Position numbers and translations under genes: made by a program. Below the pieces are notes generated by a model that ran no database searches, was not told the DNA's origin, and worked only from the letters and a program-made list of their open reading frames with translations. DNA of 64,000 nucleotides from Candidatus Aenigmatarchaeota archaeon (GTDB lineage: Archaea; Aenigmatarchaeota; Aenigmatarchaeia; GW2011-AR5): NCBI GenBank assembly GCA_016187335.1, contig JACPJW010000001.1, forward strand, positions 288,001-352,000, given 5' to 3'. Positions 62,751 through 64,000 of the stretch are shown here, in pieces (the stretch's first letter is position 1; each line of letters opens with the position of its first letter).

Positions 62751-64000
62751 TTACTTCATCACAACTCTGTCGCCGGAACTGCCGTGGTACGTTATCTGCA
62801 GTTCTCCGCCGCACTCGCAGCTGCCTGACAAAGGCGGCCTTGAAAAGGATTTGGAGCATTTCTTGCACTCAAACCCTTCGTATCCTTCCAGCGTCTGGTT
62901 ATAATCAACGCTTATCTCGTGCTTCATCTTTCTCTTGTTTCCGTTCATGAGGTCGCCCAGGCTTATCTGCCTGCCTAATCCAAGCACCTCGCTTTTGTCT
63001 ATCCCTAACGACATGAAAATCCTTTCCACAGGAGGGAAAACCTGGCTGTTGATGTAGTAGTCCGAATCTATGTGCAGGCTGTTTGTCCTGGTGTATTCCG
63101 GATCCTCTGCTCTTTTCGAAAGCATCTGGTTTCCGCGGATAATGACGAAGCCGAGCCTGTCGCCTATTTTCGGCGGGCTGTGGGGGTTGCGCGCCTTCAG
63201 TTTCTTGGCCAGTTCGATGTGGGGAAGCATGCCTTCATAGGAGTCTATGCTTTTTGTGACTCCCTTGACTATCGTCAGCTTCTCCAGCGGCACCCTGTTG
63301 CTGCGGAGGTCTTCAATGACAGCCCTTACTTTTTCTATCGCCTTCTGAAGGTCGCCCTCTTTTAAGATGGTTTCAATCACGTTTTCCATGATTTCTGGAA
63401 CCAGCAGGCACCAGTCACGTCTCACCGTCTCGATTCCCTTCATCTCTATGTTGTCAACCCATCCGCTGTCCGTCATCTCGAACTTCCATCCTGCATACCG
63501 CTTTTTTGACAGGATGAGGAATGTCCTGTATATTTTCTCGAACTGCAGCTCCAGATGGCCTGGCAGGTTCTTTGTAACGTGCTCGGCGATTTTATCGCCT
63601 AGGTTCTTCGCTTCGTCCAGTTTTTTTATTTTTGTTTTCAAAAAGATGCTGTCGGTGTCGCCGTAAACGACCTCAACGTCAAAATTTTTTTCTATGAGGT
63701 CCTTTGTTTTCATTATGTTCTCGCGGCCGTAGGCTGTTATAGCGTTAGCGACTTCGATGATGTAAAGCCGCGCCCGTATGTATCCGGTGTAGCCGTAGAA
63801 CGAGTTATGCAGCACAATCCCCTGTGCTGTAACAAACATCTCTGTATCGCGCACCGACAAATCATACACATAATCGGAAGAGGCGTAGCGTGATATTTCA
63901 GGTCTTTGGCCAAAGAGGTCGCCGGATATTATCTTATGTCCATGGGAGGTCTTTCTTCTTGATATGCGGTATAGCCCGTCGAAAGAGTTATGCTGCACGC
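62751..64000 (-). CDS. polB: Family B DNA polymerase, 3' part (5' end beyond the window), intein-containing, with a C-terminal Zn finger
   Basis: SFYGY, YGDTDS, KRYAG, KGIETVRRDW, YYINSQV, PIP-like QISLGDLM. Confidence 0.95.
   Translation of the reverse strand, partial: VQHNSFDGLYRISRRKTSHGHKIISGDLFGQRPEISRYASSDYVYDLSVRDTEMFVTAQGIVLHNSFYGYTGYIRARLYIIEVANAITAYGRENIMKTKDLIEKNFDVEVVYGDTDSIFLKTKIKKLDEAKNLGDKIAEHVTKNLPGHLELQFEKIYRTFLILSKKRYAGWKFEMTDSGWVDNIEMKGIETVRRDWCLLVPEIMENVIETILKEGDLQKAIEKVRAVIEDLRSNRVPLEKLTIVKGVTKSIDSYEGMLPHIELAKKLKARNPHSPPKIGDRLGFVIIRGNQMLSKRAEDPEYTRTNSLHIDSDYYINSQVFPPVERIFMSLGIDKSEVLGLGRQISLGDLMNGNKRKMKHEISVDYNQTLEGYEGFECKKCSKSFSRPPLSGSCECGGELQITYHGSSGDRVVMK
63804..64000 (-). 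mobile_element. C-terminal part of an intein at the PolB motif-B (N/SFYGY) site
   Basis: Block F YVYDLSV, block G VLHN, +1 Ser of SFYGY. Confidence 0.88.

Follow-up and report, generated by a model that had tools for sequence, protein, structure and literature searches.

Why does a family B DNA polymerase (PolB) of an archaeon run on past its normal end into a zinc finger? The question is raised by an open reading frame (ORF) at the end of the window, by which we mean the whole stretch of 64,000 nucleotides analyzed here, positions 288001-352000 of contig C2 of genome G000. This genome is an Aenigmatarchaeota assembly of 1.01 Mb in two contigs, with a completeness of 90.8%. The minus-strand frame at 62751-63998 is the 3′ part of a PolB gene that continues beyond the window end, and its translation ends in ...GLGRQISLGDLMNGNKRKMKHEISVDYNQTLEGYEGFECKKCSKSFSRPPLSGSCECGGELQITYHGSSGDRVVMK*, with the stop codon at 62751-62753. 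Profile and fold comparisons support the derivation of this finger from Zn-III of DP2, the large subunit of polymerase D (PolD), with which it groups rather than with generic Zn ribbons. We consider it probable, at roughly 0.88, that this enzyme is the replicative PolB of the class B6-aenigma1/PolB-DP2CTD (CTD, C-terminal domain), that the finger docks on a DP1-like protein to make a two-subunit replicase, and that DP2 has been lost.

The first-pass annotation of the window had this PolB run about 65 residues past a PIP-like motif, QISLGDLM, and end in the finger. The translation agrees, with 64 residues beyond the motif and with exact coordinates. Compared with the strict PCNA-interacting protein (PIP) box, Qxx(L/I/M)xx(F/Y/W)(F/Y/W/L), the Q and the L are present and the aromatic pair is replaced by L-M. 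The same replacement is seen in 11 of 11 homologues, in which the motif is kept as GxGRQxx(L/I)xD(L/I/V)(M/L/V). A PCNA gene is present in the genome. The PolBs of one family of the phylum, f11, have no finger and terminate at the equivalent QKSLEGF or QKNLGDF. Since QISLGDLM aligns with these terminal motifs, the linker and the finger extend the protein beyond the point where a PolB normally stops. The linker carries a basic patch, KRKMKHEI, that is conserved in the alignment of 11 homologous tails (PolB end, linker, and finger), which we call A1 and also used as a profile. In the AlphaFold2 model, the linker has a predicted local distance difference test score (pLDDT) of <50 and is thus predicted to be flexible.

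The residues C, C, R, P, L, G, C, C, G, and G of the finger are invariant in A1. When the 91-residue tail was compared with 177,635 PDB sequences, the sole credible matches were Zn-III of DP2 from P. abyssi and T. kodakarensis (E 5e-4), falling at residues 1119-1150 of 1270. The other PDB matches were C2H2 fingers, matching 'CxxCxKSFSR', and unrelated proteins, all with E >0.5 apart from a designed poly-finger protein, which attains E 0.003 only through the sum of six weak repeats. With the A1 profile, DP2 was found at E 5e-5, and the runner-up was HypA at E 0.5. Reciprocally, the full-length DP2 model TIGR00354 (1096 positions) matches about 100 related PolB frames of ~900 aa solely at ~1013-1045, which is Zn-III. 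A tblastn search of the genome with four DP2s from the same phylum gave the finger as the best match for three of the four, and nothing else that was convincing. In a library of 1.8 billion proteins, the tail as a single sequence reaches two true DP2s at Zn-III (P0060 and P0061) together with PolBs of ~900 aa. The top scores in that library belong to long Cys-rich HYR/Ig-repeat surface proteins with 5 to 24 matched stretches, which we judged to be spurious; Pfam finds HYR/Ig-like domains in the two that were scanned.

For the last 95 residues, the AlphaFold2 model has a mean pLDDT of 60 and is confident for the zinc ribbon alone (pLDDT ~75). The top three Foldseek matches of this model are P. 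abyssi DP2 chains, with 32 aligned columns, a root-mean-square deviation of 1.1-1.2 Å, 47% identity, and E 0.03; these are followed by the generic Zn ribbons of Nob1, HypA, and TFIIE-alpha. The CTDs of Pol alpha, delta, and epsilon are not among the matches of the tail in the PDB sequence, A1 profile, or Foldseek searches. The earlier suggestion that the finger is DP2-like and not a generic ribbon is therefore borne out, as DP2 Zn-III came first in the PDB, with the A1 profile, in the fold comparison, and with TIGR00354.

The body of the protein is that of a family B polymerase. Pfam identifies DNA_pol_B in the window part of the ORF (E 3e-75), and both DNA_pol_B (1.9e-112) and DNA_pol_B_exo1 (1.7e-38) in the full protein, of which public collections hold the 1382-aa form (P0005). 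The Exo I-III and Pol A-C motifs are intact: FDIE, NINSFDIPY, YSKKD, DFKSLYPS, KDMSN|SFYG, YGDTDS, and KKRY. The break in motif B is the site of an intein, residues 551-1040 (S551...HN1040/S+1), recognized by the Pfam models Intein_splicing and LAGLIDADG_3. It has Ser at position 1 and a C-terminal HN followed by Ser, and the host motif is uninterrupted, KDMSNSFYG, in the close homologue P0006, an intein-free protein of 892 aa with a tail 92% identical to that of the window PolB. Among solved structures, P0006 matches human Pol delta best (E 5e-112, 379 bits), with Thermococcales PolB a close second at 369 bits, so the margin is small.

What could the finger bind? The product of the gene next to PolB is homologous to the DP1 subunits of known structure (E 1e-15). 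Of its five phosphodiesterase motifs, four are retained (DxH, GDxxD, the motif-IV His, and GHxH), and the remaining one, motif III, GNHD, is replaced by GEME. Motif III bears the catalytic His, as judged from an H451A construct (PMC6355029). Because motif III is changed in this way and ~140 aa are missing from the N-terminus relative to canonical DP1, we regard this protein as a DP1-derived, B-subunit-like protein and not as a canonical DP1. The first-pass annotation had also raised the matter of an intact DP2 in this genome. None was found by PF03833, TIGR00354, or tblastn with DP2s of the same phylum in the assembly at its 90.8% completeness. Farther upstream, beyond orc1/cdc6, is an inverted repeat containing TTTCTCATGGA / TCCATGAGAAA, which is plausibly a candidate ORB-type (origin recognition box) replication origin beside the cdc6, DP1-like, and PolB cluster.

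A class of PolBs with these features has been described. Kazlauskas et al. in 2020 defined 'B6-aenigma1' PolBs in Aenigmarchaeota, reported an inactive DP1 in this lineage, most of whose members lack DP2, and proposed DP2 as the donor of the finger, through recombination (PMC7544198). The fusions in uncultured archaea that the first-pass annotation had mentioned are these, from the same lineage. In 2025, yeast two-hybrid experiments and AlphaFold3 models indicated that Aenigmatarchaeota DP1 binds PolB-DP2CTD and not PolBs without the CTD, and the Aenigmatarchaeota CTD was termed degenerate and shorter (PMC12680538). In PolD, Zn-III with its KxRRxP loop fits the groove between the oligonucleotide/oligosaccharide-binding (OB) and phosphodiesterase domains of DP1, and the affinity of a 20-aa Zn-III peptide for DP1 is in the nanomolar range (PMC6355029). 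The window PolB shares with B6-aenigma1 the active PolB class, the single C-terminal C4 motif nearest to DP2 Zn-III, and the phylum; its genome shares the missing DP2 and the DP1-like protein with a damaged active site. Two features are peculiar to the window copy: motif B holds an intein of 490 aa, and the partner has four of the five phosphodiesterase motifs. One of the homologues, P0010, is labelled Candidatus Aenigmarchaeota archaeon. As far as its sequence tells, the window PolB is a member of B6-aenigma1/Aenigmatarchaeota PolB-DP2CTD, and nothing essential appears to differ.

Several observations weigh against this interpretation or limit it. The Foldseek E of 0.03 is not significant, because the domain is so small, and the fold match is supportive only. 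The Pfam model zf-DPOE scores the tail at 15.8 bits, below its 21-bit cut-off, and it marks Zn-III of real DP2s at 21-23 bits. TIGR00354 falls short of E 0.001 on the genome's own finger. The last Cys pair of the finger is CxC (C-E-C), whereas it is CxxC in DP2, and Ser takes the place of the first Arg in RR (SRPPL), leaving one loop arginine where DP2 has two; several homologues keep RR. Relative to the KxRRxP loop of DP2, RPPLxG is kept, and other residues stand in for K and the first R (SFSRPP). The DP2 pattern that had been quoted for the finger thus fits from its F to its T, except that the last pair is CxC and RR is reduced to the second Arg. The module is also minimal, without the DP2 helical bundle that also contacts DP1. 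The absence of DP2 is unproven because the genome is 90.8% complete. Finally, the placement in clade B6, the sister group of Pol delta-like polymerases, is tentative and is based on Pol delta as the best PDB match by the small margin noted above (379 vs 369 bits).

The tail beyond the finger is also short. Helices alpha2′ and alpha3′ and the C-terminal PIP of DP2 have no counterpart in the PolB tail, for which the AlphaFold2 model has two short strands and no helix. By comparison, the DP2s of family f11 extend 55-60 aa beyond the finger. We also asked whether homology to DP2 reaches back from the finger into the linker, in the direction of alpha1′, and judged the signal not significant; it was seen with one of four f11 DP2s, in a gapped tblastn alignment of 69 residues with 33% identity and E 0.005.

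Is the arrangement general in the phylum? In a sample of 201 genomes, the A1 tail profile was found in 192, in PolB frames of ~900 aa with invariant cysteines, and a DP1 or DP1-like profile was found in 194. Full-length DP2 is present in all eight genomes of family f11, and is otherwise represented by fragments on small contigs in two genomes. One of these contigs, at G091:C64:11-3058, carries DP1 next to a DP2 fragment. The genome has a DP1-like gene and a fingered PolB of its own besides, and the contig is either a binning contamination or part of a second system. The DP2 fragment on contig C78 of genome G168 is similar to that of G091.

The f11 genomes (DP2 at loci L006-L009, DP1 at L033-L037, and PolB at L010-L012) have canonical DP1s of 450-512 aa with all five motifs in the five genomes compared, and their DP2 ends in a PIP, QFSLSSF. 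The finger-less f11 PolBs, of ~780 aa, are closer to the second PolB of the window genome than to the fingered one. Separate contigs carry DP1 and DP2 in the five f11 genomes that were examined, and neither cdc6 nor PolB is present in the f11 DP1 loci examined (~2.6-4.6 kb, five genomes). We had considered that PolB replaced DP2 in situ in an ancestral cdc6-DP1-DP2 operon; the gene order does not support this idea, given the separate contigs of the five f11 genomes.

We compared gene order in 20 genomes representing about 18 families. In 13 of them the DP1-like gene directly precedes the fingered PolB, and in 1 it directly follows; in 5 the two genes lie within ~6 kb of each other, and in 1 they are unlinked. 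In most of the 20, cdc6 lies ahead of the DP1-like gene. Equal spacing of DP1-like and PolB was noted in several dozen more genomes when coordinate lists were compared by eye. Exceptional orders occur in G117 (C1:13638-15093), where the DP1-like gene is immediately downstream of the fingered PolB, and in G173 (C6:27334-29168), where the two genes are convergent. When DP1-like proteins of 16 genomes were aligned with canonical DP1 of five genomes of the phylum, the motifs were seen to decay stepwise among families, from four of the five kept, in the order to which the window genome belongs, to almost none, the window genome being near the intact end. In many other families, the DP1-like protein has lost nearly all of the motifs together with a central segment. 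Conservation persists in the OB fold and in the C-terminal blocks LKKRHL, VPDIV, NYKG, and TRE.

The mechanism that we propose is as follows. After the intein in motif B is spliced out, the protein would be an active family B polymerase with its own proofreading exonuclease. Beyond its PIP-like C-terminus, PolB would have gained the flexible basic linker and a single C4 knuckle from DP2 Zn-III, and this knuckle, with the invariant R-x-P-L-x-G loop, would dock in the OB/phosphodiesterase groove of the DP1-like protein, as the PolD structure and the published two-hybrid data suggest. By analogy with those systems, we infer that the finger tethers PolB to the DP1-like subunit in this genome. DP2 would have been lost, and the resulting two-subunit replicase would have the layout of Pol delta or Pol alpha and its B subunit in eukaryotes. 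Because the DP1-like protein lacks the catalytic GNHD, having GEME instead, proofreading would be left to the PolB exonuclease. QISLGDLM may contact PCNA. The putative ORB-like origin, orc1/cdc6, DP1-like, and PolB would then form an origin-proximal cluster.

Might the finger do something else? It could mainly contact DNA or the primer terminus, as Zn-III does in the clamp-1 of PolD, or serve as a structural cap, with DP1-like binding absent or secondary. The basic patch KRKMKH in the linker is in keeping with such a role, and one of the two DP1-contacting arginines is missing from the window PolB. However, the DP1-like protein is kept in 194 of 201 genomes despite the loss of its catalytic motifs, and it usually adjoins PolB, which is hard to explain if it has no role as a partner; furthermore, a two-hybrid interaction has been published for the phylum (PMC12680538). 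The two roles are compatible with one another, but we think it improbable that DNA contact is the principal one. Still less likely is recruitment of a different replisome partner in place of DP1-like, such as the primase subunit PriL, by comparison with the CTDs of Pol alpha and DP2. The first-pass annotation had named primase, besides DP1, as a possible partner. An interaction of PriL with DP2CTD has been reported in Heimdallarchaeia, and one in T. kodakarensis was cited (PMC12680538). Against this, the CTD of Baldrarchaeial PolB3 showed no primase interaction in that work, in which Aenigmatarchaeota are not reported for primase; no primase gene is linked to the cluster within the window; and the part of the DP2 CTD beyond Zn-III is missing from the PolB tail.

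Sequences from metagenome-assembled genomes can be chimeric, and the related 'B6-aenigma2' sequences were found to be contamination from Baldrarchaeia (PMC12680538), so a misassembled or contaminant chimera, or a chance Cys-rich tail, was considered. The ORF, however, is unbroken on a contig of 918 kb, and the same tail with invariant cysteines recurs in the 192 genomes. The conservation of the tail effectively refutes an artefact already, and we give it almost no weight.

Comparison with known systems helps to define what is particular to this PolB. The DP2 CTD of PolD (P. abyssi 6HMS, 6T8H, and 8PPT; T. kodakarensis 6KNB) has FxCxxC...(R)RPPLxGxC..CGGxhxhT in common with the finger, at 45-47% identity over ~31 residues. 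DP2 has a two-barrel catalytic core and an alpha1′-alpha3′ helical bundle, both of which the window PolB lacks, and its PIP is at the far C-terminus, whereas that of the window PolB precedes the finger. In Baldrarchaeia, which keep DP1 and lack DP2, PolB3-DP2CTD likewise joins a PolB to a CTD that derives from DP2, and it binds DP1 in the two-hybrid assay (PMC12680538). As described there, the Baldrarchaeial CTD is full length and eukaryote-like, whereas the Aenigmatarchaeota CTD is shorter with another predicted structure. Eukaryotic Pol alpha, delta, and epsilon with their B subunit have the same layout of a PolB, a C-terminal metal-binding module, and an inactivated DP1-type subunit, the tethering being a prediction in the present case. 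The eukaryotic CTD, however, has CysA and CysB, a three-helix bundle, and an Fe-S site, while the window PolB has one C4 motif, no bundle, and no Fe-S site.

A PolB joined to a dead DP1-type subunit by a DP2-derived finger would be the archaeal counterpart of the eukaryotic Pol alpha/delta/epsilon and B-subunit design, and as such it bears on the origin of eukaryotic replicases, a point already made for the phylum. The eukaryote-like arrangement of PolB and DP2 finger is already known in the phylum from comparative genomics in 2020 and two-hybrid experiments in 2025. What is added here is the conserved order of cdc6, DP1-like, and PolB, the graded decay of the DP1 motifs among families, and one family that retains PolD. 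The main texts of PMC7544198 and PMC12680538 do not mention the conserved order of origin, cdc6, DP1-like, and PolB; 'operon' in PMC12680538 concerns RFC. It is conceivable, although on balance doubtful, that f11, with PolD and a finger-less PolB, and the other families, with the origin-linked cluster and graded DP1 decay, are a before-and-after series of a replicase swap, and that the DP1-like protein here may keep metal binding or a residual or altered activity, intermediate to the inert B subunit of the eukaryotic type. If that were so, the swap could be dated to one event within the phylum. The window locus is a clean example, with the whole cluster from origin to PolB intact on its long contig, and since the partner subunit is among the least decayed seen, the two proteins are a reasonable pair for biochemistry or structural work.

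Coordinates of the PolB gene, its C-terminal elements, and the neighbouring features. Positions are those of the window unless a locus or contig is given.
Feature	Position	Strand	Remarks
Full PolB ORF	G000:C2:350751-354923 = L005:5752-9924	minus	1390 aa from TTG, 1382 aa from first ATG
PolB 3′ part	62751..64000	minus	ORF 62751-63998 continues beyond window end
Intein, C-terminal end	63804..64000; intein at L005:6805-8274, running beyond window	minus	490 aa, LAGLIDADG, in motif B
PIP-like QISLGDLM	62946..62969	minus	residues 1319-1326; Q = 62967-62969
Linker	62874..62945	minus	residues 1327-1350
DP2 Zn-III-like C4 finger FECKKCSKSFSRPPLSGSCECGGELQIT	62790..62873	minus	residues 1351-1378; spacing Cx2C-x12-CxC
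C-terminal tail YHGSSGDRVVMK + stop	62751..62789	minus	12 residues
DP1-like gene	L005:10018-11103, ~3 kb beyond window end	minus	362 aa; directly upstream of PolB, co-directional
orc1/cdc6	L005:11175-12398	minus	upstream of DP1-like gene
ORB-like inverted repeat	L005:12563-12712		25-nt arms 100 nt apart, AT-rich; in 630-bp ORF-free gap upstream of orc1/cdc6
Second PolB	L002:25-2325 = G000:C2:270983-273283	plus	766 aa, finger-less; upstream of window
Second intein	L003:604-3081	minus	LAGLIDADG, in RNA polymerase A″-type gene, whose position is given

The second PolB of the genome matches Pol motifs A and C with simple patterns, and its Exo motifs were unmatched by such patterns, the only ones applied. 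Inteins are also found in some PolB relatives of 1308-1381 aa, and the second intein of this 1-Mb genome is in an RNA polymerase gene containing Rpb1 domain 5.

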